A stretch of 64,000 bases of DNA from Candidatus Omnitrophota bacterium (GCA_963805065.1 CAWDSS010000010.1:472359-536358), one strand, 5' to 3'; positions 1-64,000 are shown, counted from the first letter of the stretch. Notes: generated by a model not told the origin, from the sequence alone. Numbers and translations are program-made.

Positions 1-249
1 CATGATGTCACGTATTGCATCCTGCCGGGCGACAATCTCTTCAGGGTCAAGAAAAATACCAGTTAATTGTTCAGTCACCCAATGAGGACCTAAGTTGTTA
101 TCGCACCGGCCCGCTGTGCCGTGCATGTGTTCTAAGGCAGCAAAATCCAGATCTTTTCTTGTTTTCTCAGATAGAATAGTTCGCGGGATACCATCTTCTT
201 CTAATAAAACTCTTTCTAAATTGTGAACGGTTGTATTTTCCTCCTCCAC
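1..249 (-). other. Truncated module at the C-terminal edge of the window; possibly a MutS-like core segment
   Basis: Translation is ...LSEKTRKDLDFAALEHMHGTAGRCDNNLGPHWVTEQLTGIFLDPEEIVARQDAIRDIM. It resembles the MutS pattern LDxxTxxxLE...W...P..D...I..RQdaI. Only about 80 aa are visible. Confidence 0.3.
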
Positions 250-3200
250 CGGCGAACTGGATTCGGCTTCCTTGTTGTTAAGCACCGGCGAGGCGGCGGT
301 ATTTTTTCTACCGGGAAACTTAATTGCCACCAAAAGTTCATTTAATTCTCCTGGGTTAGTAAAAGCGCTAACACTATACTCTCTAATCTTAAGTCCACCG
401 CTTCTTTTAAAAAGGATGTTATACAGCGGCCCACAGGTAGCATGAATATGAAAACCTCGTGTTTTTAATACCCGCGTAAGTTCTTTTATAATTATAGATG
501 CATCATTTTCCGATAGGTGCAATCCTTCAAAAAAACGGCTGCTGATTACTGCATCAAAAACTTCATTAGCAAATTTTATATTTTTGGCATTTCCGCAATG
601 AACATCCAAATCCCACTGCTTAGCTGTTTCCACTGCAACATGGGAAATTTCATAGCCAGTGACCTGCGCCCCAAATTCATCTCGCAAATATCTCATTAAT
701 TCTCCGTAACCGCAACTTACTTCCAAGATTCTTTTATTTTCTAGATTAGTCAACTTTTCTGTCAAAGCATAAATAATAGGATAATAAAAATATTTGATCT
801 TTTCGGGTTCATAGTTAGGCTTTCCTCCCTCTTGTCCTAAACGTCCTTGCCAGTAGGCATCAAATTGATTATTTGGTTCGCCTTCCTTATTTAAGTCTCT
901 AAAATAATGAAGGGTTGTTACCTTATCGTTTTCTCTAGACATCGGCGAGGCGACGCGAGTTTTCTCACCCATCGGAGAACTGGGTGATGGTTGAATCAAT
1001 CTGCAATGAGGATATTTTAAATCCAACACCGGAAAGTCCGATGAAAAAACTTCTTCCAGCTTATCCTTTGTGTAGCCGCGCGATTCATCGTGGTTAATAA
1101 GACGTGCTACGGACACAACGCCTTCGGTCTTTGCGAATATTTCTGAGTGGGCACCACGAACCAAATGTCTCTTAAGTTCTCCGAGCGTTCGATAATTTAT
1201 ATTTTTTCTTTTCGCTCTCCAAATCAGTATGGGAAGATGCATTTCTGTTTTATAACCGCTAGCAACGTCTCTTGAAAAGCAAGCGAGGATATTTTCCTTC
1301 GGCACGCGGTAAACTGTGCCCGTTCCCCGTAGTGTAGAAAAATGTTTTTCGGTAATAAGTGCAAAAGACGCGAATGCCTTCCCCTCGAGATCCATGCATT
1401 TCACAAGTAAGGAGAAATTGAGAGGATCAAAGTTATTAATGTCGCTCAACTCTATCTCGCTTTCGGGACTTAAGGGCCCCAACTTTTCCATCTCAAACAG
1501 GCACACTGTTTTCTTCATAAAGATGGCGGTGATTTTCTTTCTGACATGAGGATCATAAAATGCCCAATCCGCCAATACTCTGCCGCAAATAATCTGCACT
1601 GCGGTATCATGCGGAATCCAAATGCTTTGTTCCCAATCAACGAATTTAAAGAGCCGGCTCGGCTCCGTTATCTTGAGTTGCTGCTGCCATTGACTGCATA
1701 TGTCTTTTAAGGCATTCGCTAATTCACCGTCTATTTTATTGCACCCGATACTAACGTCGCCCCCTGTCCATTCATCACTTAACGCACTGTAATCCTTGGG
1801 GTTATCAATCGTGCAATTAAATTGCCTTAGTGGGAATTTGTCCCTAAGAACCCTTAGAATAGAAATAGCCATCAATGAATGAAGCACCACATTGATATTC
1901 TCTCCCCAACGAGTTACTTTTATAGATCCCTTAGGGTACGCAGGGTACCCCCCATATGTTGGTAAGTTAGCCACCTGTTCTGCTAAATCAAGTTCAACTT
2001 TTAAATGCCTGGCTTTAATTTTCACCGGTGAGCTTCCGCGGTAGGCGGACCAGCCTGTGGCTGGAGAGGGATCAGGCGCCACCGGCGAGGCGGCGCCATT
2101 AGTTATTTTCCGCAAATCAGTCTCTTTGCGCGTAATATTTGTACATATAGCAATATTTCCTCTACACGCCATAAATAATAACTTGTTATACAGAGACATT
2201 AATCTCCAGCTGTCTCTTAGAGGTGAAGAGGCCTTATGTTCTGATTTTATTTTTACATTCAAATCTTTTAATCGGGATGGAAGATTTGCTATCAAATCAT
2301 CCGGGCCATTAGCAAGAATGGCCGGCATACCAATTTTACCCGCGGTATCTATATCAACCTTGGGACGGTCACCAATTGATACTGCCAGCTGGGGTTTACA
2401 GCCAAAATGTTCGCAAATAACTTTAAACATCTTAGATTTTCCTTCCGGCACATCTTCCTGAGTAACTACAAAATTAAACAGATCATATATATCAAGGGCC
2501 TCTAAAATACCTTTAGTCAACAGACGGCCATTATTGGTGGCAATGGCCAAGAAATATCCTTCATTTTTCAATTCGTTAAGTAACTTCCTAAGCCTCTGAT
2601 TTCTTTTAATCAGCTCAGGCGTTTTACGCAAATAACGCTTTGGAGCATCTTTCAACATTTCTCCCTGATAAGCAAAATACGTGACTAAATCAAGCCCGAA
2701 GAATCGTAGCATTGCACTCATGCTGTTTAATTCTTTCTTTTTGCTACGGAATGCTTCGGTACCTATACCGCCAAATTTCATCGAGGCGTATTCGCAGCAT
2801 GCATTCTCTTGCGCTAAAGAAAGTGCTCTGGAATCATGCAGCGTATTACCTACATCAAAAATAAGCACTTTTATGTGATTAACGAGAAGATCTTTAGTTT
2901 GCATGGGCGAGGCGGATGTAATTGTTTTCTCAAGAACTTCTTTAATATTTTTTGCTACTTCTTCAAAATCTTGCAACCTACGGCCTTGCAATGAGCGTAC
3001 ATCTAGAACCATAGCTTGAACATTGGCTTGAGAAAAATCGATATTATGGGCTTCACGCCAAGATGTAATAATGTTTGTTCCTGAACCAAACGCATCAAAG
3101 AAAATAATATAATTGATTTCTACTGATCCTTCTTCGGGCATAATATTTGTTTCTCCTATGAAACGGGAAACTAAATACTTGTGGTTAATATCTGTTGAGC

Positions 3201-6200
3201 CGATAAGCCTAAGAGAACCTTCGCTTTTTATAACATTAACAATTGAGCTGTCGATTGACAAAATCTTCCAATCCGTCTTTGAGGCATCTTTATCCTTATA
3301 TTCACTCTCTTTTGCACCGATAAGCATAGCTGCAATTGCGCTTTTGCCTACATTTATACGGCCGAGAAAAATTATTCCTTTGCCCTTAAATGAAAGAAGC
3401 TCTCCGACCCCTATCCAGCTTTCTCCTTTATAGCGAGGCTGAGTTAAGAGCAAATCTCTCATCGGAGAAGATGATTGAGAAGGCTCATTGGAATCCTTGC
3501 CAGAAACATCAAAATGTATTCGTGGGCCGACTCTCACCAGCTCCTCAAGGCGAAGCAACGCCAACATCTCGCTATTATAAAATAAACCGATTTTTTCATA
3601 AAAGAACGGTATGAAGCCTTTTAAGTAATTTGACATTTCCACGTATCTAGAGGTATCCATAACAATACGGCGTGTCCTTAAATCACTCCGGCAAAGTTGA
3701 ATAATATCTTCCTTAATCATCGGCCGTTTCTGTTTGATGATTTCACATTGCGCTTTAACGCCCTTAACAAGATAACCCAGCAAATCAAAAATCTCTGTTT
3801 TGTTTGCTTCGACAGGAAAGATAAAATACCCGCACGTACTAAAAATTTGTTTCAAGGACTTACGAAACATACCGAGGTACAGGAGAGAAAAAGCACATTC
3901 CATATCAATCGGCACAAGGCGACCTCCTTCAACAAACAAGATGTTCTCAGGGCTAATATCTGTATGCCCTATTAGATAATAAATAGCCAAGATGCGGCCT
4001 AATTGTTCTGCCTGATAGGGGTCAGATATCAGAGGACCCTGGGCTTTAATTCCGCTATGCTCAATATACTCCGACCACCCAAACGTACCAACCACATCAT
4101 GCTCCAAATGGAATTTTAAAGGCAGGGGATATTCGAGCCTTTCGAATAGATTTAATAAAGCCTCCTCCAACGCCACCGTGGGTGATGGTTTATATACGAT
4201 ACGACCCTCCTTACCTGCGCTATCTACAAATCCTAAAAGCTTTGTTCCGTCCGGCATATATTGCCTTTTTTTAAGACTACCACTTTGCAGCATATCGCAC
4301 CCTGCAGTATTAATAGCCATTTCTAAATTTATTTCTTTACAAAAACCATATTCCGCCGCTAAATTAGGAATTTGTCTCTGCCATAAATAGGCTTCAGGGC
4401 CCCTTGTTTTAGAATTAATAAATGTCTTCAAACCTACGGTTGTAGTCTCCTGTCTTGCGTTTGCGCTTAAAAGATCCGGAGAAAGATTTGTGAGTTCAAA
4501 ATACACATGCCTGTCCCCTATGCCTTCAATACTGTGCAAAGTCACATTTTTGTTAAACCACGGCAGGCTGCCATTCTCTAAAGTTCTTTGGAGGCGTCTG
4601 TAGAAAATTGAGCCTTTGCTCACTTTATTCTTTAGATCATTATTATTGGTAATCCTAAAAGAAGAACCCTCGGTGTCCACCGGCGAGCCGGAAACACCAA
4701 AGAGTTGTTTTTTTAGTAAGAGGGCTTGGGCTTTCTGTATTTCTTTTTCAAACACATCCGGAGCTCTTTGAGGCATGATACCTATCTTCCTACCCATTTC
4801 TCTCCAATACAGATATTTCTCATAAATCAGTTCACCTTGAAGAATTTTTCTCTCAAAATCCGTAAAAGAACTGTTTCTCTCAATAAAAAGCCGCGGTTCA
4901 GTGGAAAGCTGATCATTATCAAGAATACAAAATCTTCCATTCTTGGTTAAGCCATAATTCCAATACCATCTTTTGGCATCTATATCGTGAATACCGCGCA
5001 TCCACATCCGATGGGTGTAATCTAGAAACATTCTGGAATACGATCCGTAAATTCGATCATAAATATACTTCACTTCTTCTTTCCCTAATGCGCGCTCTCC
5101 AATTTTTCGTCTTAAATCTTCAATAACCCTATCATTAACAATCTTTCCCGCCTCCTGAAGAATAATATGACGATTAAAATGCCACGGTCTTTTTTCTATT
5201 AAAATGGCGGAACCTTCTAAAATAGACAATGCCAGATATCCCCCAAGACATTCTTTAGCCAAAATATAACCGCGCAAGACATTGTCTTCATCCCTGGACT
5301 GCGGAACCTTAACAAACACTCCCCCTGTTTCATCAGAATAATACAAATCCACCGCGGGTGCGATATCCCCTGAAGGAACAAAATTAAAATTAGCCTTTTC
5401 TATTACTCCACGGATAACTCTGTCACCCTCTTCCTTCAGGGTATGTTGTAGTTCTTCTATATCAATGCTCCATCGGGCCAATTTTTCCTTGCATCTAAGT
5501 AGGGCACCGGTCCTATACCAAAAAAGAATCTGAGAAATTCTAGATTCCATTTCTTTGGCACTCAAACCTGAAGATATTCCTTTTTCTATCACCGGTGAGC
5601 TAGTGAACTTTGTTCTAAACTGTATTCTAAAAAGAGTACCGTTAACTATATTCAAACGCTTGCTATACCTTAAAAGCCTTAAAAGACGTCCGGAATTGTC
5701 ATCTGGCCAACTATGTCTCAACCACCTTTCATAACATTCCCAGGCTTGGGAATCCTTATCTTGGTAGAAATAAATATCCCCTTTGATCTTCCATGCTTCA
5801 GGGGATAATGGATTATACTTAATGGCTTTGTCAACCGCTTCCAAAGCCCTATAAAACTGATTCAAGACTACATGGACTATGGCTTTCTCGCAATACAACC
5901 TACATAAGTCATTTTTCCTATCAGGCTTCGTTCGCATAATTGCCTCTTCAAGGCAATCTAGGGCTCTATTATTGCCACCGTGTTTACGATAAATTTTTGC
6001 AAGGCAAGATATTGGCTCTGGATTGCCCGGATCTTCTTCTTTATATTCATTGGCAATTTTCTCTGCAACATTGAGAAGTCCGGCGTTAAAGGCAGCCCAC
6101 ATGTCATCTTTTCTATATATCACGAGGTCTTGGATTTTTGTTATCGGCAAGGTGAGATAAGGAGCAGCCTGAGCACAAAAAGCGTTTCCTAAACTGATTA

Positions 6201-9200
6201 ATATCGTTTGCGCCAATTGATCAAAGGCCCGCTCTTTTTCTTTGAAGCCAGATGTGTTTTCCCTGATATGATCCAATATGCCCAAGACAGGCTGTTTCTT
6301 ATCAACATCATTACAGGCTTCGTTAATAAGAAATTTAAGGAAGTCAAAACAGCCATTATAAACGTAGTACGCCTCTATGCTGGCTATGCCGCGAGTTTCT
6401 TTTGCTTTCTTGTTCGCCAGCCATAAACCAACCAAACCCTGCACGAGCCATTCAACGACGTGAGTAAAAGGACTCACATAATGGCCGAAAAGAATTGTCT
6501 TAATCTGCTCTATGGTTAAAGATCTGGCCCAAGAAGCAATTATTTCAGAAGCCCAAGCCCTATCAGCCTCTACTATTACAGGTGATCCGGAATACGCATT
6601 GCCGTCAGAATCATCGCCCTCTTTTATCTTACGCCTAACTTGGTCATAGACCTCTGTTGGCACTGAAATCATGAGCCGGTAGTCAATAGTTACAGCTTTT
6701 ACAAATTCCTCGATGGCTGAGTCAGTCTCTTGGATATCTAAATAAGTCAACCCAAAGTCACGGTGAACCAAAGCAAAATCATCCGGTATAGAAAAATGGC
6801 CACTAGCACAAGCTTGTTTATAATGGCTGATTGCCTTCTGATAAAAACCCTTGTCAGAATATACATTTCCAAGATTCGCGTGCGCATCAGCACAATAATA
6901 ATTCAGACTGACAGATTTTTCTAATTCTCGAATAGCCGCCTCAAGATCAGCAAAAATAATTCCGCAAAATGTCCCCAATTGTAAATGATTGTCATAATCA
7001 AAAGGGTTTATTTCGCAGGCTTCCATGTAATGTTTCAATGCCTGCTCGCTGTAATACTTTTTCTCATCTTTGTCGGATATCTCATCCAAAAGCTGATAAT
7101 ACAAGTTACCAAATTGCTTATGGATAAAGGCCCTCATGCCGGAAGGAGACACTATCTGCATGGTAAAATAGATCAAGTCGAAAATTGGTATTCCTCCTTC
7201 TTTATCCGGCAATAACGAATCCTTATCTAATTCATAACTAGCCCTCTGCTTCATAAGATTTAATAATTTGTCCTGGGGAAGCCAATATTTTTGATTTAAC
7301 ACATGAGGCTCAAGAGGCAACCCCGTAATATCTCTAATTACTCCGCGCTGTTCCTCCAGACGGAGCCCTACACGCAGGTCTTTAAACCCTATTTTCCCAT
7401 TCATTCCGTTAGATGAGGTCGTTGGGTAAAAATCTGATAAATTTATTAGAAATATTTGTGCTATGCTTAAATCCACAAATAACACCAGATCTTTTGTTAT
7501 AGGAACAACTGTCCAGGCATGATTCTGCGAAATAGCAAATCTGATATCAACATCTAACAATTGTAAAAGAATATACGTAAACATGGGGATGGCTAAGGAA
7601 TCCAAGATTCCTCTTTTATATCCTTCTTTAATTTTTTTATCGCCCTTTAACTTATCCACGAGATCAAAAATATCATCTTCGGCAAATACATTAATTAGCT
7701 GCCGGGCAAGCGAATCTCCGGAAACCATACTATTTTCGTACTGGGACCTTATAATCGGATCCAAACCCAAAATAATCTTCATTAATTTTGTAATATCTTT
7801 GGATTTTATCAGGGGCGCCAATCTTTCCTGCATGGTTAAGAGTTTCATTTTTTCATGACTCTCTAATAATATTTCGTCAAGCATAGGAATTATCCTAAAC
7901 AAAACAGGCTGAGGGAAACCGATGGGCTTCAAAATCGAAAACAATTTTCTCATGCGTAATTCTTTATTCAGCAATCCAGTGCCCCCTACAGGCGAACCGA
8001 CAGATTGCCGTAGGAGAGGAATTTCTATTTCTACTACGAGACCAATTTGCTTCATCTTTGCCCTAACGACCATAGTATTCCAGCCCTCCGGGTGTTTCTC
8101 GTCAGCTAACAATATCCGCCTGTATTCACCGGAATGATAAACAATAAGCCCTTGACGCTTAAGAACTATCTCCTGACAAGCTAACCAGGCATTATAAGAG
8201 ACAGAGGCATCAACATCTTTTTCTTGTTCTATCAGAGGCCATCGCGGCATCAGTTCACGCACATCAATACCAACACCACGGTCTTGAATAATAATACGGA
8301 CCTTATCTTCTTCAAACAAAGTAAATTTAGCAACAACAACCCTTTTCTTTCCCTGCTCTAAGCCGTTTTTCGTCAATTGAGCCAAACATTCTATGAATCC
8401 TTCATCGCCACCAATATCCTCCCATCCTATTGATGAGATATCTTCTTTAATTGTGTTCAGATCTTTTTTTCCTTCAAATCTGACAGCCCTTACTCCAAAT
8501 AACTCGTTTAATTTTTCTATTGTATGCGAATTATCCAACAATACCTCACCCATAAACACTTCTCTTCTCGCTTGGTCATTCAAATAATTCTTGTCGGATA
8601 AAATAGCAATAAAATCGTCTACGATTTCCGGATCAAGTTGAGTCCCTTTAACCTTAAAGAGTATCTGTATCGCCTTCTCAATGGGCATTCCTTGGCGATA
8701 AGGCCTGTCAGAGGTCATCGCATCAAAAGTATCTGCGACAGCGGTTATCCTGGCGAGTAGAGGAATTTCTTCGCCTTTCAATCCATCCGGATACCCCTTG
8801 CCATCGTAACGTTCATGATGATAGCGTATGATTGACCTGATAATATCATTTGATTGTTCTCTCCATGGGTTCTCAGAAAGAATTTGATCGCCTTTAACAG
8901 AATGCTCTTTGATTTTCTCAAACTCATCATCTGTCAAGCGATCAGGTTTATTCAAAACTTGCTCAGGCACGCCAATCTTGCCTATATCATGTAAATCAGC
9001 CCCTTTCTCAAGAGCGTCTATCTCATCCATGTTCAATCCATACCTGAGAGCAAGCCAAAACACATACATCCTCACGCGATCCGTATGACCGCGCGTATAG
9101 GGATCTTTAGCTTCAATGGCATTGGCAAGCGTCGATATCAAACCAAAATCGGTCCGGAAATATTTCTGTTGCTCAATAGCCGCCATTCCTAACTGCACAA

Positions 9201-57200: not shown

Positions 57201-60200
57201 AGTATACAATTTCTGTAACCACGCCTTCCCTGTCTTGTTTAAGCTCAAAACCTTCTCTGTTCAGGTCTCTTATGCGTGCAAACAAATCTGCCTGTTTAAA
57301 AGTATTAAGTTCTGCATTTAGCTCGCCAGCCTTCCATTGATAATCCCTGTAATATTGATACAGGGTATTGTAATCACCACTTTCGTCTTTCTTAAATACC
57401 TTAGCTTCCTGTTCAACTCCGCCAATGCCATAACCCGGGATAGACTTCAGCAGATAATCAACCGTGCCATTCTTCTCAATACCCCTATATTCGTCAATGA
57501 CATTGCCCCAGACGTTAGCGGTTTTTTGCACGTAGTAATCAACAAGTCCGGCATTGAAATCCTTATACCATGTTTCATTAATGCTCATGGTTTTTGTCTC
57601 ATAATCATAGAGGGCTGTAAATGGCGCGAGAACTTCCAAAGTATTCTTTTCTCTAATTACTCCACCTATGAGCACGCCGTTTGCCTGATAGAATTCCTCT
57701 GCGTCTTTCAAAATGCCTATCTGTCTTCTGACGCGGCCGATAACATTATAGATTTCAGTAATCTCCTCGCCACCATGCATCCAGTTAAACACTTTTTGTT
57801 TGCGGCCGCTCTCTGAAATAGCTTGTGTAGTAATAATATTTTTCTTTAATGCTTCGCTGTAAATAGCGCTATTGAAAAGGGTGAGCCTGTCGCTATAGCC
57901 CATAAATACTCTGCGAGTATCGAAGATGCCGGGCACAATCTCGATATTATTGAATTCATTAATCCTATTGAGGCTGGACTGCGTATCAACAAGAGTTGTG
58001 CCCTCTTCGCCCCATGCTGTGGTGTAATCTGACTTTTGAGTGTGTTTGGCAAAATTAAACCCATTCTTCTGCTCTTTGGAATCTATAACAACTTCTCCCA
58101 GAGAATTCTTGGTAATCCTGCCGATTTCCCTTAGATCAACGCTAAGCGTGATATTATATCCGAAGGTCTCAAATAGGCCTTGTCCCATGTCAATGTCTTC
58201 TATGGTGCCTGAGAGTTCTTTACCCACGAATGTGCTGATGACCATCTCTCCGGTCTGCTCATCTGCCCTCTTATAGCGGAAGGTGGCTGTTTGATTAATT
58301 TTATCAAGGGTGCCGGCATCAAGGGTATCTCTCCATGTGCTCATTACCCACAAGGATAATTCACTTGCATCAACCCTGCCATTATTATTAGCATCAACAT
58401 ATGTGTCGCGTCCTGCTTCAATGCCTAAGGGAGCAAACCTTGCCAGCACCAGTAATGAAACCTTCCTTCCCTCCCGAGGCTCAATCACATACTCAAACAT
58501 AGTGAACAAGCCTGTCCTTACATCTAAAACAGCTGTCTCACGGTGGGCATTGGACCAGGTAAACTCATAACTAATAGTCTTGTTTTTGGGATTGGCAATT
58601 CCGTTCTTGCTTTCAAGCACCCAAATATCCTCGGCTCCGTCCAGATACATCTTCCAACCAATAACAACCTCTACGCTGTTATAATCTCTCCTAATGTCAT
58701 AGGTCCGCTCATGGCCATTAATCTTACCGTGCATCTTAATATTACTAAGCAAGCCGTTGTAAGCATTCTGGTCGTATTCCTGCCAGTTGCCCAACGCAAA
58801 ATATTCTTTCTTAAATAATTTGGCGTCATGCGCATCAGTAGTAACCGTATGCTTAACCTCTCCGATTTGGCGGCCGAATCTAAATTCTATTGTTATAGTC
58901 ATCTTTTCAATTTCATCTTCGTCATATTCAATCTTCACCTGCCATACCACGCCTTCGCCTAACACATCAGGCGACGTAATTAAGACAAACATCGCCAGGC
59001 CGTTGTCTAAGCTTTTGATAATCTGTTTTGTCTCGCCTGTATTGGGGTTATAATAATCTTCGAGCAGGCTTGCCCTTAACACATTACCGGCTGCATCTCT
59101 GACTTGCTTAGGCCTGCCCAAGTCATCCAAAACGCTGGTTGTCCCATCAATCAGCTGGCCGGATAAGTTGGTCCTCCTGGATGCCTCTTCAATGTCAATA
59201 GAGTTAAACCCGATATCAATAACATTGTAAGGGGTCATGTAACGCACAGGTGCGCCGTTGACAAGGTTAACAAAGATGGACATCTTCATACCGACTTTTG
59301 GCCTTGTCTCTTCAACCTCCAAAACCCTGTAGTGGCCGTAGAAGGTGTCCAAATCCACTAAATTCTTTGGCACGGATACGCGGCTAACCCTGTCTCCGGC
59401 AGTCTGCGTGTCTGAATTCCAGAATAACCTTTCTACCCTAGATGCAATTCTTCTGGCTCTCCAATAAGCATCATCGTAGGAATACTTGTTAACAACACTG
59501 GCATAGATGTGGCCGTTTTCGTATTTAATTTTACCCTTATCTTCATAAACTTCTCTTACCTTGCCCTTACCGTCAAAAACCCAGATAGACGCGGTTTCTT
59601 TAACCGTCTGGGGTATTTCAAAGGTAGTGCCGCCAAATTTATTGAATTCCAAGAAGTTGGATTCAGAAATCTGTAAACCTGTGATGAGGTCAACGTCTCT
59701 TGAGTGCATGGCTGCGCCAAATCCGGCCCTGAATGCATCTGTATAATCAAATGTCTTCTCGCGATGCACCATATGGTTCCTGCGGATTTCTTTATAGAGT
59801 AAATTAAACACGTCTTTTTCCTGTGTAATCTTCAATGCCGTTACCTTGTCGTCAACTTCCAGGATAAACCGTACCCCATATATCGTATCTTTAATGCCGG
59901 TCTTCTCATTGAATGTTGTTTCGCCAAGAGTCTCACCGGTATTCAGGTCATCTTTTACGCTCTTGGCAGCCATGCCGATAAACTCCATAAATGCTGACGT
60001 ATAGGTGTTTTCTGTGCTAACACCGTCTTCTCTATCGGTTTCTCCAAGAATGTCGCCAGCGCCCAAATCAATCAGGCGGTTCACGGTATAAGACTCAATG
60101 CGATCAGGCGTATAATAGGTAACTTGCTGGCTCGTTATCTCCCGTGGGATATCAACCGCTTTGTTTTCAACTCTGCTATAGAGAGCTCTTCTATCCGGCG

Positions 60201-63200
60201 TCTCAATAAATGTATTGATGTATTTGGGGATGAAGAAAGGTTGATGGGTAGCATCGTAATATACCCAATTATTATTTCCATACTCATACTCTTTAACCTG
60301 GCTGTAGCCGATACGGGAATCTAATTTCTCCCTGAGAATTCTGCCGTTATCAGCTGCAAAGGTTTGCTCTGTGCTGTATAAAAGCCTTCCGTCCGGCAGG
60401 AATAAATATTGCCTATGGGTAGTCTCCTGATCAGCCTGATTTATGGGCGTTTCTCTGACGCTTATAGAGCCAATCTTACTGGCAAACGCTATGAGATCGC
60501 TTTCATGCGCGAATTTGCTTCGAAGCTCTCTTAAATTATTGGCTTCGCCGATAAAGCTCACGCTCAAACGGGCAACACCATCTGGTTGCATCTTTGTTGA
60601 TATGCTGTAGCCGTCATAGAAGAAGATGGTTACTACACCGTTTATAATCCTGTATGAGAAGCCGACTTTTTCTGCCAAAGGATTAACTCGTGATTCTCCC
60701 AATTTCTCAAGCCTGGCCTGTATAGTTTCCCAGTTTGCGCGCATCTTATATACCACTTCTAAATATGTAACTGCATCCGGAAATCCTGCTTTGCCTTCAG
60801 CTCTCTGCCGGATAAGCCCAGAGATATCAAGTAAGAAATTTTCTACTCTTGCCAGGTTCTTGCCTTGAGGATGTTTAAGATCAATGCCGAAACGGCCATC
60901 ATAAGTAATGCCTAAGTTATAGAAGAAGTTAACAGCCTCGGCATAATAATAATTTGAGTTAATTTCTCTTAAGAGCTTAATCATGCCATTTAAAACAGCA
61001 ATATATTCTTGCGGCGTCTTCCAGAAATCGGTTGATTTCGAGCCAATCTTATCTGCGACATCAGCAATCTTTTGTCTTAATGTGGGGGAATATCTGGCAT
61101 TGCCGCGATAAGGAATGCCTTGCAAACCATAAACCTCTCTAATCTTGTCAAAGGCTCCTCCTTGTTCCATTGCTATCTGAATCTTGAGATTATTTAATAC
61201 ATCCTGGATAGTCTTGGGTTGGCTTAAGGTATCAATAACTGTACAGCCGGTAAGCACATCCAAACGCTTAACCTGTGTCTTGCCGATGTTGGCCACGGCA
61301 TCAAACACGATCTGCCTTAACACAGCGCTCTTGGTAGAGACGCCGATTTTCTCATCAGTGGTGCCTAAGAATTTCACGCCTGCTAAGTCTGTGTAGAGTA
61401 AACGTACGGCATCCAGGCCGCCCTGCTGATTGAAGCTGGCAGCATTCTTGTAGCTATTGATGATATCCTGTAAGGTCAGGGCTGTATCTAAGGTGGTAGT
61501 GATCACAGCGCCGGTGTCGATGTCTACACCCTTGATGGAGGTCTTGCCGATGTTGGCCACGGCATCAAACACGATCTGCCTTAACACAGCGCTCTTGGTA
61601 GAGACGCCGATTTTCTCATCAGTGGTGCCTAAGAATTTCACGCCTGCTAAGTCTGTGTAGAGTAAACGTACGGCATCCAGGCCGCCCTGCTGATTGAAGC
61701 TGGCAGCATTCTTGTAGCTATTGATGATATCCTGTAAGGTCAGGGCTGTATCTAAGGTGGTAGTGATCACAGCGCCGGTGTCGATGTCTACACCCTTGAT
61801 GGAGGTCTTGCCGATGTTGGCCACGGCATCAAACACGATCTGCCTTAACACAGCGCTCTTGGTAGAGACGCCGATTTTCTCATCAGTGGTGCCTAAGAAT
61901 TTCACGCCTGCTAAGTCTGTGTAGAGTAAACGTACGGCATCCAGGCCGCCCTGCTGATTGAAGCTGGCAGCATTCTTGTAGCTATTGATGATATCCTGTA
62001 AGGTCAGGGCTGTATCTAAGGTGGTAGTGATCACAGCGCCGGTGTCGATGTCTACACCCTTGATGGAGGTCTTGCCGATGTTGGCCACGGCATCAAACAC
62101 GATCTGCCTTAACACAGCGCTCTTGGTAGAGACGCCGATTTTCTCATCAGTGGTGCCTAAGAATTTCACGCCTGCTAAGTCTGTGTAGAGTAAACGTACG
62201 GCATCCAGGCCGCCCTGCTGATTGAAGCTGGCAGCATTCTTGTAGCTATTGATGATATCCTGTAAGGTCAGGGCTGTATCTAAGGTGGTAGTGATCACAG
62301 CGCCGGTGTCGATGTCTACACCCTTGATGGAGGTCTTGCCGATGTTGGCCACGGCATCAAACACGATCTGCCTTAACACAGCGCTCTTGGTAGAGACGCC
62401 GATTTTCTCATCAGTGGTGCCTAAGAATTTCACGCCTGCTAAGTCTGTGTAGAGTAAACGTACGGCATCCAGGCCGCCCTGCTGATTGAAGCTGGCAGCA
62501 TTCTTGTAGCTATTGATGATATCCTGTAAGGTCAGGGCTGTATCTAAGGTGGTAGTGATCACAGCGCCGGTGTCGATGTCTACACCCTTGATGGAGGTCT
62601 TGCCGATGTTGGCCACGGCATCAAACACGATCTGCCTTAACACAGCGCTCTTGGTAGAGACGCCGATTTTCTCATCAGTGGTGCCTAAGAATTTCACGCC
62701 TGCTAAGTCTGTGTAGAGTAAACGTACGGCATCCAGGCCGCCCTGCTGATTGAAGCTGGCAGCATTCTTGTAGCTATTGATGATATCCTGTAAGGTCAGG
62801 GCTGTATCTAAGGTGGTAGTGATCACAGCGCCGGTGTCGATGTCTACACCCTTGATGGAGGTCTTGCCGATGTTGGCCACGGCATCAAACACGATCTGCC
62901 TTAACACAGCGCTCTTGGTAGAGACGCCGATTTTCTCATCAGTGGTGCCTAAGAATTTCACGCCTGCTAAGTCTGTGTAGAGTAAACGTACGGCATCCAG
63001 GCCGCCCTGCTGATTGAAGCTGGCAGCATTCTTGTAGCTATTGATGATATCCTGTAAGGTCAGGGCTGTATCTAAGGTGGTAGTGATCACAGCGCCGGTG
63101 TCGATGTCTACACCCTTGATGGAGGTCTTGCCGATGTTGGCCACGGCATCAAACACGATCTGCCTTAACACAGCGCTCTTGGTAGAGACGCCGATTTTCT

Positions 63201-63999
63201 CATCAGTGGTGCCTAAGAATTTCACGCCTGCTAAGTCTGTGTAGAGTAAACGTACGGCATCCAGGCCGCCCTGCTGATTGAAGCTGGCAGCATTCTTGTA
63301 GCTATTGATGATATCCTGTAAGGTCAGGGCTGTATCTAAGGTGGTAGTGATCACAGCGCCGGTGTCGATGTCTACACCCTTGATGGAGGTCTTGCCGATG
63401 TTGGCCACGGCATCAAACACGATCTGCCTTAACACAGCGCTCTTGGTAGAGACGCCGATTTTCTCATCAGTGGTGCCTAAGAATTTCACGCCTGCTAAGT
63501 CTGTGTAGAGTAAACGTACGGCATCCAGGCCGCCCTGCTGATTGAAGCTGGCAGCATTCTTGTAGCTATTGATGATATCCTGTAAGGTCAGGGCTGTATC
63601 TAAGGTGGTAGTGATCACAGCGCCGGTGTCGATGTCTACACCCTTGATGGAGGTCTTGCCGATGTTGGCCACGGCATCAAACACGATCTGCCTTAACACA
63701 GCGCTCTTGGTAGAGACGCCGATTTTCTCATCAGTGGTGCCTAAGAATTTCACGCCTGCTAAGTCTGTGTAGAGTAAACGTACGGCATCCAGGCCGCCCT
63801 GCTGATTGAAGCTGGCAGCATTCTTGTAGCTATTGATGATATCCTGTAAGGTCAGGGCTGTATCTAAGGTGGTAGTGATCACAGCGCCGGTGTCGATGTC
63901 TACACCCTTGATGGAGGTCTTGCCGATGTTGGCCACGGCATCAAACACGATCTGCCTTAACACAGCGCTCTTGGTAGAGACGCCGATTTTCTCATCAGT
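1..63999 (-). CDS. Interior of a single giant ORF (21,333 codons in window, truncated at both ends). Multi-module, membrane-anchored mega-protein.
   Basis: In the frame whose codons start at plus-strand positions 1, 4, 7... I saw no TTA, CTA or TCA triplet (reverse complements of TAA, TAG, TGA) anywhere in the window. The same frame gives recognisable catalytic motifs from 0.3 kb to 44 kb and coherent repeats to 64 kb. The ORF track shows no long ORF on either strand, as expected if the real ORF has no ends in the window. Confidence 0.93.
286..942 (-). other. Class I SAM-dependent methyltransferase module (MTase I)
   Basis: Motif I-like ILEVSCGYGEL lies at about 697-729. It is followed by VTGYEIS, then FDAVISSRFFEGL and LTRVLKTRG. 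The module is bounded by junction motifs at 940/970 and 283/247. Confidence 0.8.
973..2025 (-). other. Unassigned module (about 350 aa)
   Basis: The stretch is stop-free and bounded by GSSPV (2023) and PSSPM (970). I could not recognise a family signature. Confidence 0.4.
2083..2904 (-). other. HAD-superfamily hydrolase module
   Basis: Motif I is LIFDVGNTLHD (about 2836-2868). Motif II is AIATNN. Motif IV is SIGDRPKVDIDTA (about 2345-2383), with a Lys-containing segment between. Junctions lie at 2902 and 2080. Confidence 0.75.
2905..3462 (-). other. P-loop NTPase or kinase-like module
   Basis: Walker A GRINVGKS lies at about 3341-3364, in the context FLGRINVGKSAIAAML. Junctions lie at 3460 and 2902. 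Confidence 0.55.
3463..4176 (-). other. Protein-kinase-like fold module (aminoglycoside-phosphotransferase or LanM-dehydratase-like catalytic loop)
   Basis: IGHTDISPENILFVEGGRLVPIDMECAF lies at about 3900-3983. It fits the HxDxxxxN catalytic loop followed by an xID metal-binding element. Confidence 0.45.
4177..5592 (-). other. Two unassigned modules (4177-4680 and 4681-5592)
   Basis: They are delimited by junctions at 5590 (TSSPV), 4678 (SGSPV) and 4174 (weak PSPTV). No signature was recognised. Confidence 0.35.
5593..7989 (-). other. Two TPR-containing modules (5593-6579 and 6580-7989)
   Basis: TPR-like helices lie at about 5720-6010 (LAKIYRKHGGNNRALDCLEEAI...AWKIKGDIYFYQDKDSQAWECYERWL). 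A second set lies at about 6690-7075 (YYSEQALKHYMEACEINP...AHANLGNVYSDKGFYQKAISHYKQA...AIEEFVKAVTID). Confidence 0.7.
7990..8599 (-). other. Possible GHKL (HATPase_c-like) segment following HD-GYP
   Basis: LAQLTKNGLEQG is N-box-like and VRIIIQDRGVGIDV is G1-box-like. The resemblance is weak. Confidence 0.3.
8600..9130 (-). other. HD-GYP domain (c-di-GMP phosphodiesterase family)
   Basis: AIEAKDPYTRGHTDRV lies at about 9073-9120. ADLHDIGKIGVPEQVLNKP lies at about 8944-9000. HHERYDGKGYPDGLKGEEIP lies at 8761-8820. Confidence 0.9.
9150..9669 (-). other. GAF-like sensor domain
   Basis: Translation is ATGAEYGSMFLFLEDNAKYLYCAAS...SLLYMPIKLKTRGLVMGVLELVNKKEGRFTEEDIKALGPIVQLGMAAIE. This is a typical GAF C-terminal pattern. 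It starts right after junction 9667 (ASSPT). Confidence 0.65.
9670..10428 (-). other. Unassigned module (about 250 aa)
   Basis: It is bounded by TSSPI (10426) and ASSPT (9667). No signature was recognised. Confidence 0.35.
10429..11403 (-). other. Polytopic membrane module (about 6 predicted TM helices)
   Basis: Hydrophobic stretches include TFVVPLLGVVSTFVLAQA, FAVSMLSSLFFVTIGGAIFALFL, ILVSLQVSLGAGIILSI, ISLGVGLLLVVFYEASLLPLLAWW, IVIGVALFPQFWFGYFMI and YFMISAILQVSSTFMIPLGYI. Confidence 0.7.
11404..14622 (-). other. Large alpha-helical repeat module (ARM/HEAT-like) with internal repeats of about 110 aa
   Basis: Related units recur: LYPELKGDVQATALYIARR (about 12430-12480), IYPQMQNDMQAAALFIAEQ (about 12775-12825), LLHPEKKGDSQALALLVAEK (about 13090-13150) and EAYPELKDKTCD (about 13290-13340). 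Confidence 0.55.
14716..16545 (-). other. Unassigned module (about 610 aa)
   Basis: It is bounded by ASSPM (16543) and AGSPI (14713). A Ser-rich tail (SSIQIASSSRSIMLAGASSSI) lies at about 14800-14880. Confidence 0.35.
16642..18627 (-). other. Five short, mostly helical or coiled-coil modules (42-240 aa each)
   Basis: They are delimited by junctions at 18625, 18208, 17992, 17866, 17362 and 16639. The sequence is rich in heptad-like E/K/L/Q stretches, for example KEVQDKLDVLKSGKYARSLSEQRKERLNQVDILLEDAQN. Confidence 0.5.
18628..21222 (-). other. Alpha-D-phosphohexomutase (phosphoglucomutase/phosphomannomutase family) module
   Basis: Four signatures appear in the canonical order. The Ser loop is YVTASHAIA (about 20651-20674). 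The metal loop is ITDPDGDRLV (about 19823-19852). The sugar loop is GEESGGE (19402-19422). The phosphate loop is IRPSGTEAK (about 18919-18945). Confidence 0.85.
21223..21849 (-). other. Unassigned helical module (about 210 aa)
   Basis: It is bounded by GSSPM (21847) and SSSPT (21220). Confidence 0.35.
21850..22095 (-). other. Small twin module B (about 80 aa), related to 26356-26583
   Basis: It contains DFLPWLVESLSAAALA, KGLFLFL and PSSVAGW. It is flanked by junctions on both sides (22093 and 21847). Confidence 0.6.
21915..22039 (-). repeat. Copies of a roughly 17-nt direct repeat (plus strand CCACCAGCCACGGAAGG)
   Basis: An exact copy lies at 22023-22039. A degenerate copy (CAACCTGCCACGGAAGA) lies at about 21915-21931. 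Confidence 0.8.
22096..23445 (-). other. Three unassigned modules (22096-22356, 22357-23064, 23065-23445)
   Basis: They are delimited by SSSPV (23443), TGSPL (23062), VSSPL (22354) and ISSPI (22093). They are mostly helical and no signature was recognised. Confidence 0.35.
23446..23880 (-). other. Minimal nucleotidyltransferase (Pol-beta fold, MNT-like) module
   Basis: VLVLGSYADGREKQGSDLDVSI lies at about 23701-23766. It fits the GS-x(9-10)-D-x-D signature. Confidence 0.8.
23881..24543 (-). other. Module with a recombinase/resolvase-type helix-turn-helix segment; no catalytic domain seen
   Basis: GKTSQQIVDKLNELGYKTRRGNPWTVKSIEHQVRNGRI lies at about 23935-24040. It resembles the IAxxLNxxGxxTxxGxxWxxxxV pattern of serine-recombinase accessory domains. 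Confidence 0.4.
24544..26355 (-). other. Polytopic membrane module with an HExxH motif (zinc-metalloprotease-like) and an internal duplication
   Basis: GIGVFFHELGHWLGSS has HELGH at 25948-25962, set among many hydrophobic helices. Duplicated units are LLLFLLGYKLQKTKSRLSVFLMAFSLGHYYIMNFM (about 25590-25690) and FLLFLIGYKLRKTRTYLSAFIIGLSLGHYYMMDFL (about 24793-24893). Confidence 0.6.
26356..26583 (-). other. Small twin module A (about 75 aa), related to 21850-22095
   Basis: It contains PSVAGGE, GGLFLV and DLPWLVAVVSAAAA. It is flanked by junctions at 26581 and 26353. Confidence 0.6.
26421..26523 (-). repeat. Two exact copies of the 17-nt repeat CCACCAGCCACGGAAGG, 86 nt apart, read in two different codon phases
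   Basis: The copy at 26421-26437 is translated as LPWLV. The copy at 26507-26523 is translated as PSVAGG. The start positions differ modulo 3. Confidence 0.85.
26584..27930 (-). other. Unassigned module (about 450 aa)
   Basis: It is bounded by TSSPI (27928) and SSSPL (26581). No signature was recognised. Confidence 0.35.
27931..30723 (-). other. Alpha-glucan (glycogen/maltodextrin) phosphorylase-like GT35 module
   Basis: The N-terminal VMAGGLGVLMPDL lies at about 30445-30483. The PLP-lysine region LEASATSIMKALVNAAV lies at about 28855-28905, comparable with the EASGTSxMK signature. The length of about 930 aa is appropriate for the family. Confidence 0.75.
30724..32565 (-). other. Glycogen/starch-synthase-like GT-B glycosyltransferase (GT5-like) module
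   Basis: AYHFNDWQTG is present. TTHNLEYQG lies at 31901-31927. IGRIVKQKG lies at about 31351-31377. DMPSIDEPGGLLDQEMA lies at about 31039-31089. ARGGLVDF is present. These occur in the canonical GlgA order. Confidence 0.8.
32566..33177 (-). other. 2H phosphoesterase (LigT / cyclic-phosphodiesterase-like) module
   Basis: There are two H-x-T-x motifs: NHVTIVGF (about 33010-33033) and PHATMGY (about 32741-32761). They are separated by about 90 aa within a module of about 200 aa. Confidence 0.6.
33178..34074 (-). other. Class I SAM-dependent methyltransferase module (MTase II)
   Basis: Motif I YLEIGPGVS lies at 33631-33657. It is followed by VVELSEK, FDLITAFSVIEHL and ILKPERFVFL. Confidence 0.8.
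34075..35037 (-). other. Module with 2 TM helices plus a soluble domain of unknown function
   Basis: The TM helices are VIAAVSLVVISISFYSLIF and LWLSTLLLAFIVGIVAIG, at about 34800-34930. Confidence 0.5.
35038..36051 (-). other. Class I SAM-dependent methyltransferase module with an N-terminal Cys4 zinc ribbon (MTase III)
   Basis: The zinc ribbon is CPLCKSG...CQRCRLVF. The motif I variant LLDVRAACGW lies at 35719-35748. FDIITLIDVLEHT and LLKDNGILI follow. Confidence 0.8.
36052..36933 (-). other. CCA-adding enzyme / poly(A) polymerase family nucleotidyltransferase head-domain module
   Basis: IVIIGGTIRDILFNLPVSDIDITV lies at about 36715-36786. It matches the GGxVRDxLLxxxxxDxD signature. Confidence 0.7.
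36934..39096 (-). other. Composite module: 3-4 TM helices, PBS-lyase-type HEAT repeats, then a long coiled coil
   Basis: The TM helices lie at about 38650-39090 (FLSAIPIGWRFALWISLPYIVPFVIFSVIYPI and others). The HEAT repeats lie at about 37870-38530 (NVRISAITVLRKLG, SNVRVDAALSLGELKDKKALEFLIRALKDSTWQVREAAVKSL, DLVVRKEAAIALGDLLDVEAVEPLIAAL). The coiled coil lies at about 36950-37560. Confidence 0.7.
39097..40026 (-). other. Possible phosphodiester glycosidase (DUF2233/NAGPA-like) module
   Basis: LAVNGHQSNFWE, AIGGPLLIENSE, FSAIGANKEGNIIILSMSG and GAKDAILLGSRLDVQ follow the order typical of that family. The assignment is by eye only. Confidence 0.35.
40027..40563 (-). other. Coiled-coil module (about 180 aa)
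   Basis: It shows heptad-like K/E/L/Q-rich sequence and is bounded by GSSPM (40561) and TSSPV (40024). Confidence 0.55.
40564..41364 (-). other. Unassigned module (about 265 aa)
   Basis: It is bounded by ATSPI (41362) and GSSPM (40561). Confidence 0.35.
41357..43504 (-). repeat. Perfect tandem duplication of a 1,068-bp (356-aa) module: 2 full copies plus a 12-nt third start
   Basis: 41357-42424 and 42425-43492 were identical wherever I compared them. The track ORFs 41700..41891 and 42768..42959 are also identical. Copies start at the junction codons (AAT GGG GCT, = SPI) at 41362, 42430 and 43498. Confidence 0.9.
43501..44508 (-). other. GNAT N-acetyltransferase domain followed by a beta-rich domain
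   Basis: The GNAT motif A, LYSTAVDNDYQGQGLGFKLHVELFRKLRKDG, has its core at 44224-44253. The module is bounded by ASSPT (44506) and VSSPI (43498). Confidence 0.7.
44509..44751 (-). other. Short module (about 80 aa) between junctions 44749 and 44506
   Basis: Translation is ADETQEKTIPAQDNANNTINSLALANILERIAHDRVHNIGKDLSGSAVVFQGTEQYLEARGLGNTALTRAQPEEFSASSPT. Confidence 0.4.
44752..46308 (-). other. Unassigned region with 2 TM helices at its N-terminal end
   Basis: The TM helices YILLLFSLLSLIGGCSTYDIVL and GLGLTLVTGILLAIVSDVV lie at about 46080-46215. The rest is a soluble region without a recognised signature. Confidence 0.4.
46309..48480 (-). repeat. Family of 87-aa (261-bp) helical repeats: about 2.6 identical units plus about 4 diverged units and one insertion
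   Basis: The unit is SYNEAKAKEMLYDWTKEAYKKVLENELVYLKVRAPDLAKANHAALKEIFALKAQKKDREASQKQTELTVALYTTQPDLAKEALLYKA. Identical DNA starts at 46309, 46570 and 46831. Diverged units lie at about 47700-48480. A non-repeat insert lies at about 47100-47700. Confidence 0.85.
48481..54891 (-). other. Junction-free mega-module of about 2,100 aa with several clusters of TM helices and large soluble loops; function unknown
   Basis: One TM cluster lies at about 52500-53540 (for example VLIGISAVLAAKYFMLGYVVAGINLIIPLVAQVL and FAITLLLAGPTLLIAALVGFIWVGI). Another lies at about 48960-50250 (for example LAVLITNVIFNIFAVVLPI and LIVSLVLGYYFLAGILGVWFIL). No SSP-type junction lies between 44749 and 54889. Confidence 0.55.
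55003..55059 (-). other. Single TM helix (candidate membrane anchor) followed by a basic stretch
   Basis: ILIATVFIVFSIVALASII is followed by KVVLNFIKLWKSKR. By the positive-inside rule, the downstream (lower-coordinate) part would be cytoplasmic. Confidence 0.65.
55080..61090 (-). other. Beta-rich, Tyr/Asp/Gly/Asn-rich region of about 2,000 aa, possibly extracytoplasmic (weak YD/RHS-like flavour)
   Basis: No junction motifs and no TM helices were seen here. Segments such as YEYGNNNWVYYDATHQ, KYENGHIYASVVNKYSYDDAY and LFLPDGRLLYSTEQTF recur. The family assignment is not secure. Confidence 0.35.
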
Positions 64000-64000
64000 G
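61090..64000 (-). repeat. 88-aa (264-bp) tandem repeat array: at least 10 identical units plus one degenerate terminal unit, continuing past the window end
   Basis: The unit is TLQDIINSYKNAASFNQQGGLDAVRLLYTDLAGVKFLGTTDEKIGVSTKSAVLRQIVFDAVANIGKTSIKGVDIDTGAVITTTLDTAL. DNA identity with period 264 runs from 61277 to 64000. Nine identical antisense shadow ORFs in the track, spaced 264 nt apart, confirm this. The degenerate unit lies at about 61090-61276. Confidence 0.95.

Follow-up and report, generated by a model that had tools for sequence, protein, structure and literature searches.

A recurrent Ser-Pro motif at the module boundaries of a giant multi-enzyme gene from Candidatus Omnitrophota

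A 64,000-nucleotide stretch of DNA from Candidatus Omnitrophota bacterium (GCA_963805065.1 CAWDSS010000010.1:472359-536358; hereafter the window, numbered from its first letter) is spanned by a single minus-strand open reading frame (ORF) of 21,333 codons (1..63999), open at both window edges, in which a five-residue consensus, [SATG]-[SG]-S-P-[VIML], recurs along the encoded chain. The sites of this motif mark module boundaries by four independent criteria: the envelopes of Pfam domains, the character of the flanking sequence, the extent of homology blocks and an AlphaFold model. The whole window is very probably the interior of one genuine giant protein-coding gene of the Omnitrophota multi-enzyme ('Archaeovorin') type, and its junctions, taken with the free-standing counterparts of its modules in other genomes, suggest a fused-operon or polyprotein architecture. 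Residue i of the chain corresponds to window bases 63999-3(i-1) down to 63997-3(i-1), and all features described below lie on the minus strand (-).

A punctuated open frame

Read from base 63999 to base 1, the minus frame contains no TAA, TAG or TGA among its 21,333 codons according to a six-frame stop count, in agreement with the first-pass annotation, which had described a stop-free minus-strand frame across the whole window; its underlying observation, that TTA, CTA and TCA are missing from plus-strand phase 1, 4, 7 and onward, is exact by computed translation. The remaining five frames carry 872-2,072 stops each, with longest open runs of 103-241 codons. At the window G+C content of 40.3% the expected stop rate is 0.068 per codon, which gives a probability of ~10^-653 for zero stops in 21,333 codons, and the coding statistics are uniform: in all 1,000-codon blocks the G+C content is 0.45-0.50 at the first codon position (GC1) and 0.30-0.40 at the second (GC2), and the purine fraction at the first is 0.60-0.75, while stops per 1,000 codons number 47-114 in the two same-strand off-frames and 15-86 in the opposite-strand frames. 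The earlier argument that chance could not produce such a frame thus holds. Because no stop codon of any type occurs, the frame is open in every known genetic code, and the uniform codon-position signature argues for genuine coding sequence throughout the window. Since the frame is open at both edges, the gene exceeds the window and the protein is longer than 21,333 amino acids (aa), as had been claimed. No tRNA (ARAGORN) and no Rfam family was found in the 64-kb window; a scan for promoter and terminator signals in window 1-20,000 gave no useful difference from shuffles and was set aside.

Counted as [STAG]-S-P-[VILMF] (x-S-P-h for short), the motif has 45 sites, compared to 3.14 +/- 1.76 in shuffles. 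Forty-four of the 45 lie in residues 6414-21333 (window 1..44760), the remaining one at residue 3034, and the median spacing of sites is ~307 aa. Position -1 is occupied by a small residue in 37 of the 45 sites against 10.6 expected, and in an unbiased k-mer scan of residues 6414-21333 the six 4-mers with the strongest enrichment are SSPM, TSSP, SSPV, SSSP, GSSP and SSPI; the same kind of scan over residues 1-6,400 found no such motif. In chain order, the x-S-P-h codons of sites 1-9 lie at 54889-54900, 44749-44760, 43498-43509, 42430-42441, 41362-41373, 40561-40572, 40024-40035, 39094-39105 and 36931-36942; those of sites 10-18 at 36049-36060, 35035-35046, 34072-34083, 32563-32574, 30721-30732, 27928-27939, 27634-27645, 26581-26592 and 23443-23454; those of sites 19-27 at 23062-23073, 22354-22365, 22093-22104, 21847-21858, 18625-18636, 18208-18219, 17992-18003, 17866-17877 and 16639-16650; those of sites 28-36 at 16543-16554, 14713-14724, 14620-14631, 11401-11412, 10426-10437, 7987-7998, 6577-6588, 5590-5601 and 4678-4689; and those of sites 37-45 at 3460-3471, 2902-2913, 2218-2229, 2080-2091, 2023-2034, 970-981, 940-951, 283-294 and 247-258. 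The motif serines are encoded by both AGY and TCN, and this mixture of codon families indicates that the constraint acts at the level of the peptide rather than the DNA. A DNA-level element behind the motif, such as a recombination site or an RNA hairpin, was rejected in view of the mixed serine codons and of the varying codons of a second junction motif, R-S-E-h-R, found in relatives (see below). Doubled punctuation, with two copies 10-32 aa apart, is seen at residues 15784/15816, 16426/16457, 20637/20656, 21007/21017 and 21236/21248.

The four lines of evidence that place the sites at module boundaries are as follows. None of the 18 Pfam envelopes is hit by a site (P ~0.001), and the HAD hydrolase near the window's C-terminal edge is tightly bracketed, starting 16 aa past ASPM (20363) and ending 29 aa short of SSPL (20591). 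Compared to random positions, the flanks of the sites are more hydrophilic (z = -3.6) and more disorder-prone (z = +5.0). Long high-scoring segment pairs with homologues cross a site by at least 40 aa in only 4 of 176 cases, and the database matches of a two-module query fall into two disjoint groups, split exactly at SSSPL-11090. The first of these modules (module A; residues 10480-11089, window 30733..32562), located between TSSPI (10476) and SSSPL (11090), resembles GT-B enzymes of the glycogen/starch-synthase type (PF08323, E 2.5e-22); the second (module B; residues 11094-12020, window 27940..30720) is GT1/phosphorylase-like (PF00343, E 1e-10; PF00534), and its homologues form a separate set whose alignments are confined to query positions 615-1200. 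In the AlphaFold2 model of module A (residues 10,440-11,130, nine homologues; pLDDT 82, pTM 0.82), disorder occurs only before TSSPI and after SSSPL. The same model matches 6gne_A (E 8e-28, target-normalised TM-score, TMt, 0.81) and E. coli glycogen synthase 2qzs (TMt 0.78), with TM-scores of 0.78-0.82, also target-normalised, against full-length glycogen/starch synthases, so that module A, as modelled, is a complete glycogen-synthase fold. A single-sequence AlphaFold2 prediction of residues 20340-21333, which hold nine junction sites, was uninformative (pLDDT 33) and was discarded.

Junction motifs and free-standing modules in relatives

A HMMER search with residues 10,476-11,675 returned 1,652 relatives, and the best homologues of residues 999-2260, 10476-11090 and 11090-12021 are Candidatus Omnitrophota bacterium proteins with 42-54% identity. 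Most of the top homologues are partial sequences that take up their entire contig, one of 7,679 aa on a contig of 23,039 bp among them. A profile-guided scan, restricted to one genome per species, returned 19 loci (L numbers below; P numbers denote homologous proteins). Thirteen of the top 17 loci are Omnitrophota metagenome-assembled genomes (MAGs) or single-amplified genomes, and in 12 of 16 loci the homologue frame is open over the entire fetched locus, up to 7,294 aa, the loci being 22-kb segments of long contigs. Collinear homologues of the membrane zone and of module A are also present in loci with other labels, namely L015 (OY969767.1, a 2.7-Mb chromosome labelled uncultured Elusimicrobia), L011 (Endomicrobiales), and L014 and L019 (Planctomycetia labels). 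The order of segments in the window recurs in independent assemblies: P0153 covers residues 999-2260; the giant ORFs of L015 and L019 are collinear over residues ~3,110-5,031 and then continue with module A; L012 carries the module at residues 9,020-9,314 followed by module A; and P0001 matches residues 6,841-7,532, 8,003-8,294 and 10,489-11,077 in the same order. This shared order argues against a chimera for at least the first half of the chain.

Sites of the form [SAG]-[SAG]-S-P-h are present in other Omnitrophota giant ORFs, with 11 in L008, 8 in L018, 6 in L019 and 6 in L004, and the motif immediately precedes the module-A homologue in L008, L013, L018, L019 and P0005. The module-A homologues that share this upstream motif are only 28-48% identical to module A of the window. 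L018 and L019, which are 60% identical overall, conserve 6 of 7 sites. The L008 sites flank HAD and TPR modules and also parts of a fused pyruvate:ferredoxin oxidoreductase, in which Fer4, TPP_C, POR, POR_N and PFOR_II are joined over ORF residues ~6332-7294 (JBFMBZ010000081.1), with S-P sites ahead of Fer4 and POR; the L008 giant chain thus incorporates a core redox enzyme of the cytoplasm.

Other homologues carry a different mark. In P0054, R-T-S-P-h occurs nine times against 0.03 expected and marks the two junctions of its module A, and in the 52 homologues of at least 1,500 aa the pattern R-[SAT]-E-h-R (mostly R-S-E-[LVMI]-R) occurs 101 times against 3.8 expected, a 26-fold enrichment. In ~20 proteins R-S-E-h-R precedes the conserved start of module B by 5-25 aa, in P0057 it lies outside and between the PGM and HEAT domains, and its codons vary among copies. 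Carriers of R-[SA]-E-[LVMI]-R include P0037, P0044, P0057, P0068, P0055, P0020, P0022 and others, together with L001 (9075-20786). Three R-S-E-h-R carriers with complete N-termini and signal peptides, P0057, P0020 and P0026, are only 2,800-4,300 aa long, which indicates that the punctuation extends beyond the very largest genes. A literature search for RSELR matched only unrelated alginate-lyase motifs, and neither of two studies devoted to giant proteins (10.1101/2023.11.21.568195; 10.64898/2026.06.07.730766) mentions a junction or linker motif.

Both modules used as queries also exist on their own. Module A is free-standing in P0151 (805 aa) and P0004 (782 aa), within co-directional gene arrays of other genomes, and stand-alone versions of module B, P0010 and P0073, have signal peptides. 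The neighbours of free-standing homologues at L002 and L003 are not homologous to the neighbouring modules of the window, and a simple 'same operon, fused' relation with those two loci is therefore unsupported.

Modules, repeats and membrane helices along the chain

Pfam scans, run on 30 overlapping pieces of the chain, identified ~15 unrelated families, in the order GNAT, NAGPA, HEAT, three S-adenosylmethionine (SAM) methyltransferases, GT5, GT1, nucleotidyltransferase, phosphoglucomutase/phosphomannomutase (PGM/PMM), GAF, HD-GYP, TPR, DUF4135 and HAD. From their sequences, many modules of the zone spanning residues 6,414-21,333 are recognisable as enzymes of sugar-nucleotide/glycan metabolism, small-molecule modification and signalling. 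The zone opens with a GNAT acetyltransferase (residues 6540-6611, window 44167..44382; PF00583, E 3e-7) that has QGQGLG at 6584, followed by a 356-aa unit in tandem duplicate (residues 6826-7582, window 41254..43524; 97% and 86% identical), the pair being homologous to P0001 residues 226-884 at 37% identity. Each copy opens at x-S-P-I with the junction motif (SSPI or TSPI, then TLYDHPVTKDLYEF), which indicates that the duplication carried the punctuation mark along with the module. A NAGPA phosphodiester glycosidase (residues 8089-8251, window 39247..39735; PF09992, E 5e-8) lies between the sites at 7989 and 8299, and the homology block shared with P0001 covers residues 8003-8294. HEAT repeats (residues ~8470-8680, window 37960..38592; PF13646, E 1e-31) come after a transmembrane pair (residues 8329-8433, window 38701-39015; hydropathy scan), and two SAM methyltransferases, 27-29% identical to each other (residues 9397-9549 and 10110-10242, window 33274..35811; PF13489, E 2e-14 and 2e-13), are separated by another transmembrane pair (residues 9684-9736).

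Beyond modules A and B, a transmembrane cluster called from hydropathy (residues 12758-13115) is joined by a weak nucleotidyltransferase match with the motif GS...DLD (residues 13412-13476; PF01909, E 5e-4; both within window 23572..25728). Domains II and III of a PGM/PMM (residues 14526-14920, window 19240..20424; PF02880, E 2e-8; PF02879, E 4e-4) have the metal loop DPDGDR at 14719; no canonical form of the catalytic Ser loop was found in this module. Residues 15960-16172 (window 15484..16122) match NF033874 with E 1.6e-17, well below the curated cut-off, and the SidJ poly-glutamylase subfamily with E 5e-11, and show only a domain-level resemblance, judged by profile matches, to SidJ-related pseudokinases, a family familiar from Legionella effectors. 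The hydropathy scan places a further transmembrane cluster (residues 17535-17711, window 10867..11397) right after the SSPI site at 17530, ahead of a GAF domain (residues 18136-18276) and an HD-GYP-type HD domain (residues 18290-18459; together window 8623..9594; PF13487, E 6e-37; PF13185, E 4e-11) with HDIGK at 18337 and GYP at 18402. TPR repeats (residues 19018-19438; PF07719, E 6e-15) and a LanM-dehydratase-associated DUF4135 fragment (residues 19931-20038; PF13575, E 5e-13) occupy window 3886..6948, the HAD hydrolase covers profile positions 1-177 of 178 (residues 20379-20562, window 2314..2865; PF13419, E 3e-19), and the C-terminal-most SAM methyltransferase of the window, with EVSCGYG (residues 21085-21190, window 430..747; PF08241, E 5e-15), lies between the sites at 21017 and 21236. 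No related loci for residues 20359-21333 were found among the genome or metagenome contigs searched, and the two-methyltransferase region has no homologous proteins at E<=1e-3.

The first-pass annotation had seen canonical motifs of many unrelated families in this frame, and this is correct for the ~15 families on one chain and for the motifs of HD-GYP (HDIGK...GYP), GNAT (QGQGLG), the PGM metal loop (DPDGDR), methyltransferase motif I (EVSCGYG) and the nucleotidyltransferase (GS...DLD). It does not extend to the HAD hydrolase, in which motif I reads FDVGNT (residue 20381, window 2848-2865) with the second Asp replaced by Gly, nor to module A, where the glycogen-synthase KxGGL motif is absent despite the confident fold. 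These two departures indicate that some modules may be altered or inactive.

The N-terminal zone (residues 1-6,400) consists of repeats, an unannotated region and membrane helices. It begins with an 88-aa (264-bp) unit in 10.3 perfect tandem copies that runs past the window edge (residues 1-907, window 61279..63999; Tandem Repeats Finder period 264, 100% matches); the periodicity stops at window 61276, and repeat comparison reveals a diverged copy at residues 881-975 (window 61075-61359). Independent evidence for the frame over residues 1-907 thus amounts to one 88-codon unit plus one diverged copy, and as the unit length is a multiple of 3 nt, an error in copy number would leave the frame intact. 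The array has a G+C content of 0.51 and a third-position G+C content of 0.66, whereas the gene elsewhere has ~0.40 and ~0.37; the array may have expanded recently in frame, or may owe its copy number to the assembly. Pfam matches within the array (DnaG_cat_HB, KCTD etc.) were rejected as summed weak repeat matches in which no single stretch passes. The region that follows (residues 976-2980, window 55060..61074) is rich in Tyr, Asn, Gly and Thr, lacks the punctuation motif and has no Pfam, NCBIfam or PDB sequence match; one homologue was found, P0153, a contig-filling partial protein of an Omnitrophota MAG, with 42-44% identity over residues 999-2260. A strong single transmembrane helix closes it (residues 2981-2999, window 55003-55059; Kyte-Doolittle 2.94). 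A membrane-rich zone defined by hydropathy (residues ~3506-5972, window 46084..53484) contains helix clusters at residues 3506-3714, 4604-4989 and 5928-5972, and an 87-aa repeat family (residues 5173-5928, window 46216-48483) whose copies are 55-69% identical and which is detected as 261-bp tandems at 46309-46992 (100% matches) and 47621-48441 (75%). The 88-aa and 87-aa units are the only repeat arrays, and neither matches a family in the Pfam scans. Over the whole chain, 33 windows with a mean Kyte-Doolittle value >=1.8 correspond to ~30 helices in ~8 clusters; these calls come from a crude Kyte-Doolittle scan, not from DeepTMHMM, and imply no topology.

Fate of the chain and place among giant proteins

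Giant ORFs >20 kb are common in Omnitrophota and occur in most Velamenicoccia genomes (PMC10066038), a 2023 study described a giant protein of 85,804 aa (10.1101/2023.11.21.568195), and a 2026 survey counted 3,650 proteins with 10,000 aa or more, including 348 with 30,000 aa or more, and a maximum of 147,155 aa (10.64898/2026.06.07.730766). By these published sizes a protein of at least 21,333 aa is large but ordinary for Omnitrophota, and its earlier placement among the largest bacterial genes known was overstated. The window ORF (at least 63,999 nt) exceeds the thresholds of >=10,000 aa (Nielsen & Lui 2026) and >20 kb (Seymour et al. 2023); the giant genes of West-Roberts 2023 are defined as >90,000 bp, and 64 kb are visible here (10.1101/2023.11.21.568195). 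We conclude that the giant ORF is a new, very divergent member of a catalogued class and no size record. The family list of the Archaeovorins includes HEAT, GT5, GT1, TPR and PGM/PMM (10.1101/2023.11.21.568195), and class 1 of a 916-protein catalogue, the 'multi-enzyme metabolic clusters', comprises in its Modules 1 and 2 PF08241, PF00583, PF13419, HD, PF08323, PF00534 and PF02879/80 (10.64898/2026.06.07.730766). Like the Archaeovorins and the equivalent class 1 (Nielsen & Lui), the window holds a single ORF of tens of kb with many transmembrane helices and large unannotated stretches, combines HEAT, GT5, GT1, TPR, PGM/PMM, methyltransferase, GNAT, HAD and HD in one chain in which no single repeat is dominant, has short in-frame tandem repeats that make up <10% of the coding sequence, and finds its nearest homologues among Omnitrophota MAG proteins. 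It differs in that identity per module is at most 54% and module order is partly shared, and in that no SecA-DEAD, C39/S8 peptidase, NUDIX or glycoside-hydrolase domain was seen in this 21-kaa piece by the 30-piece Pfam scans. In the summary given by PMC10066038, the giant protein of Velamenicoccus archaeovorus LiM has 39,678 aa and 42 predicted transmembrane helices; as described there, it is likewise a membrane-associated giant ORF of the same phylum, the Archaeovorin type sequence, with expression at the protein level according to cited proteomics.

The gene may have arisen as units known elsewhere as separate genes were strung together in frame and shuffled, and would in effect be an operon written as one codon string. 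The roughly 40 protein-sized modules of residues 6,414-21,333 would be made as one continuous polypeptide and inserted into the membrane through the helix clusters, and the single chain would keep the sugar-handling, modifying and signalling enzymes co-localised and at a fixed 1:1 stoichiometry. The punctuation motif would serve as a recognition element at the junctions, most plausibly as a protease processing site that gives ordinary-sized proteins, with sister lineages placing R-T-S-P-h or R-S-E-h-R at the same junctions. The junction motif is thereby a candidate processing site, and the product might be a polyprotein; we advance this only tentatively, because there is no protease in the window and many relatives lack the motif. 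The wider proposal, that the lineage-specific motifs ([SAG]-S-S-P-[VIM], R-T-S-P-h and R-S-E-h-R) are the sites of co-evolving proteases that would cut the chain into about 40 or more ordinary proteins, cytoplasmic, membrane-bound and secreted, strikes us as rather unlikely. A recurring short consensus at module junctions, as expected for a polyprotein, is found in the window and in its relatives. Our literature search found no paper joining Omnitrophota with a polyprotein, and the matches to cleavage sites that it returned were irrelevant.

Precedents for such a logic exist. Picornaviruses, potyviruses and nidoviruses encode polyproteins in which one ORF yields many mature proteins and the junction consensus varies by lineage with the cognate protease. 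A short junction consensus every few hundred residues is formally the same arrangement as S-S-P-h, R-T-S-P-h and R-S-E-h-R, whereas the gene of the window is cellular, exceeds such ORFs 5-50 times in length and carries clusters of membrane helices, and its cleavage is hypothetical. MARTX and large clostridial toxins are multi-effector chains in which a cysteine protease domain cuts the linkers between domains of its own chain, and share with the proposed logic unrelated enzymatic modules on one chain and short linker consensus sites; they differ in being secreted proteins of 2,500-5,300 aa with RTX repeats and an inositol hexakisphosphate-activated cysteine protease domain, domains that the window lacks, and in that cleavage here is hypothetical. 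Non-ribosomal peptide synthetases (NRPSs), polyketide synthases (PKSs), fatty acid synthases and AROM also combine several catalytic activities and linkers in one chain, but use carrier-domain chemistry and functionally ordered steps, whereas the window contains unrelated enzymes without carrier domains.

Several observations weigh against processing: no peptidase Pfam domain is present in the window, with the unannotated segments searched to E 0.1; P0001, P0008 and P0015, among other homologous giant fragments, have no recognisable punctuation motif, so that punctuation is not obligatory; and some catalytic motifs (HAD motif I, KxGGL) are degenerate. The first two of these speak equally for a chain that is never cut, which would be a membrane-tethered mega-enzyme or scaffold with the motif acting as a favoured flexible-linker sequence, as a site for docking or for modification such as Ser phosphorylation or glycosylation, or as a co-translational folding pause, as does the position of the sites in disordered hydrophilic stretches, expected of any linker, and the resemblance of S-P and R-x-S to typical kinase consensus shapes. 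A generic linker would not, however, retain a fixed five-residue consensus with an invariant S-P across modules that are 28-45% identical; the motif is not low-complexity, and the equally sharp R-S-E-h-R and R-T-S-P-h are swapped in at the same junctions, as expected of a co-evolving recognition site. An uncut chain is the main alternative, though less likely than not. A stop-free mRNA could also yield many proteins by internal initiation after S-S-P, the motif being a signal or fossil of gene starts. Met follows S-S-P in 10 of 45 sites, the fourth motif codon is ATG, GTG or TTG in 19 of 45 compared to 20% for M/V/I/L codons generally, and GTG makes up 8 of the 16 Val codons at this position against 23% overall; moreover, the HAD and methyltransferase modules open right after the motif like normal N-termini, and free-standing homologues begin near the junction. 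On the other side, 26 of 45 sites have non-start codons, R-S-E-h-R ends in Arg, which cannot be a start codon, the variation of the Ser codons points to selection on the peptide, and Shine-Dalgarno-like sequences stand upstream of only 5 of 45 sites against 7.2 expected, so that Shine-Dalgarno-driven initiation at the motif was rejected. Internal initiation appears improbable; the start-codon excess at the fourth position is possibly a fossil of former gene starts.

The existence of the gene itself could be questioned if genes or contigs had been joined, or repeats mis-assembled, so that no cell contained such a single gene. Tandem arrays of 100% identity are beyond short-read assemblers, and no identical or near-identical public sequence was found; joined genes would, however, bring stop codons, of which there are none in 64 kb, codon-position statistics are uniform and repeat units are multiples of 3 nt, module order over residues ~1,000-11,100 is common to five independent assemblies, and the homologue frames run uninterrupted through whole 22-kb loci of long contigs. 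That the frame is an artefact of assembly or consensus thus appears very improbable. The caveat of the first-pass annotation that a chimeric contig would refute the single gene is partly answered by the matching segment order over residues ~1,000-11,100, and retains its force for the C-terminal half, where such support is almost lacking. That another class of giant gene is involved, a repeat adhesin, an RTX-type surface protein or an NRPS/PKS megasynthase, is scarcely credible: the N-terminal-side tandem repeats, the large size and the membrane association would fit, but the 30 Pfam pieces revealed no Ig, cadherin, VCBS, haemagglutinin, RTX, TSP3 or dockerin repeats and no condensation, adenylation, ketosynthase, acyltransferase or carrier domains, there are ~15 unrelated enzyme families instead, and the homologues are Omnitrophota giants. 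Further points count against the assignment to one giant Omnitrophota gene. Collinearity with relatives is nearly absent over residues 12,100-21,333, and homologue searches found no relative closer than 54% identity. The copy number of the perfect arrays at 61,279-63,999 and 46,309-46,992 could be mis-assembled. With no marker gene, gene end or flanking gene in the window, the assignment to Omnitrophota rests on homologue labels, and of the related loci three bear the labels Endomicrobiales, Elusimicrobia or Planctomycetia, so that either these genomes are mislabelled or misbinned, or the gene type reaches beyond the phylum. A divergent SecA DEAD/preprotein-binding domain occurs in most, not all, giant genes (West-Roberts, 10.1101/2023.11.21.568195), and neither SecA-DEAD (PF07517) nor the C39/S8 peptidase domains typical according to that 2023 paper were found in the window; the SecA-DEAD domain may lie outside it. 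Further marks of the class are an N-terminal signal peptide or C39/S8 peptidase region and, next to the gene, type II secretion and sugar-import genes, all at positions beyond the edges of the window.

The giant ORF by itself is confirmatory, one more member of a class catalogued in thousands. For this class, cleavage-point information was stated to be absent, which blocked analysis of the individual units, and whether the product works as one chain or is cleaved was posed as a question (10.1101/2023.11.21.568195). The junction motif makes this question, raised by the 2023 study, directly testable, as it provides concrete, checkable candidates for cut sites and a principled way of splitting such proteins for structure prediction and annotation; if the processing idea is true, it would be the first usable cleavage-point map for any giant bacterial protein. 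The motif supports the view of giant genes as fused, shuffled operons, and bears on how expression and stoichiometry may be managed in ultra-small, host-dependent bacteria.

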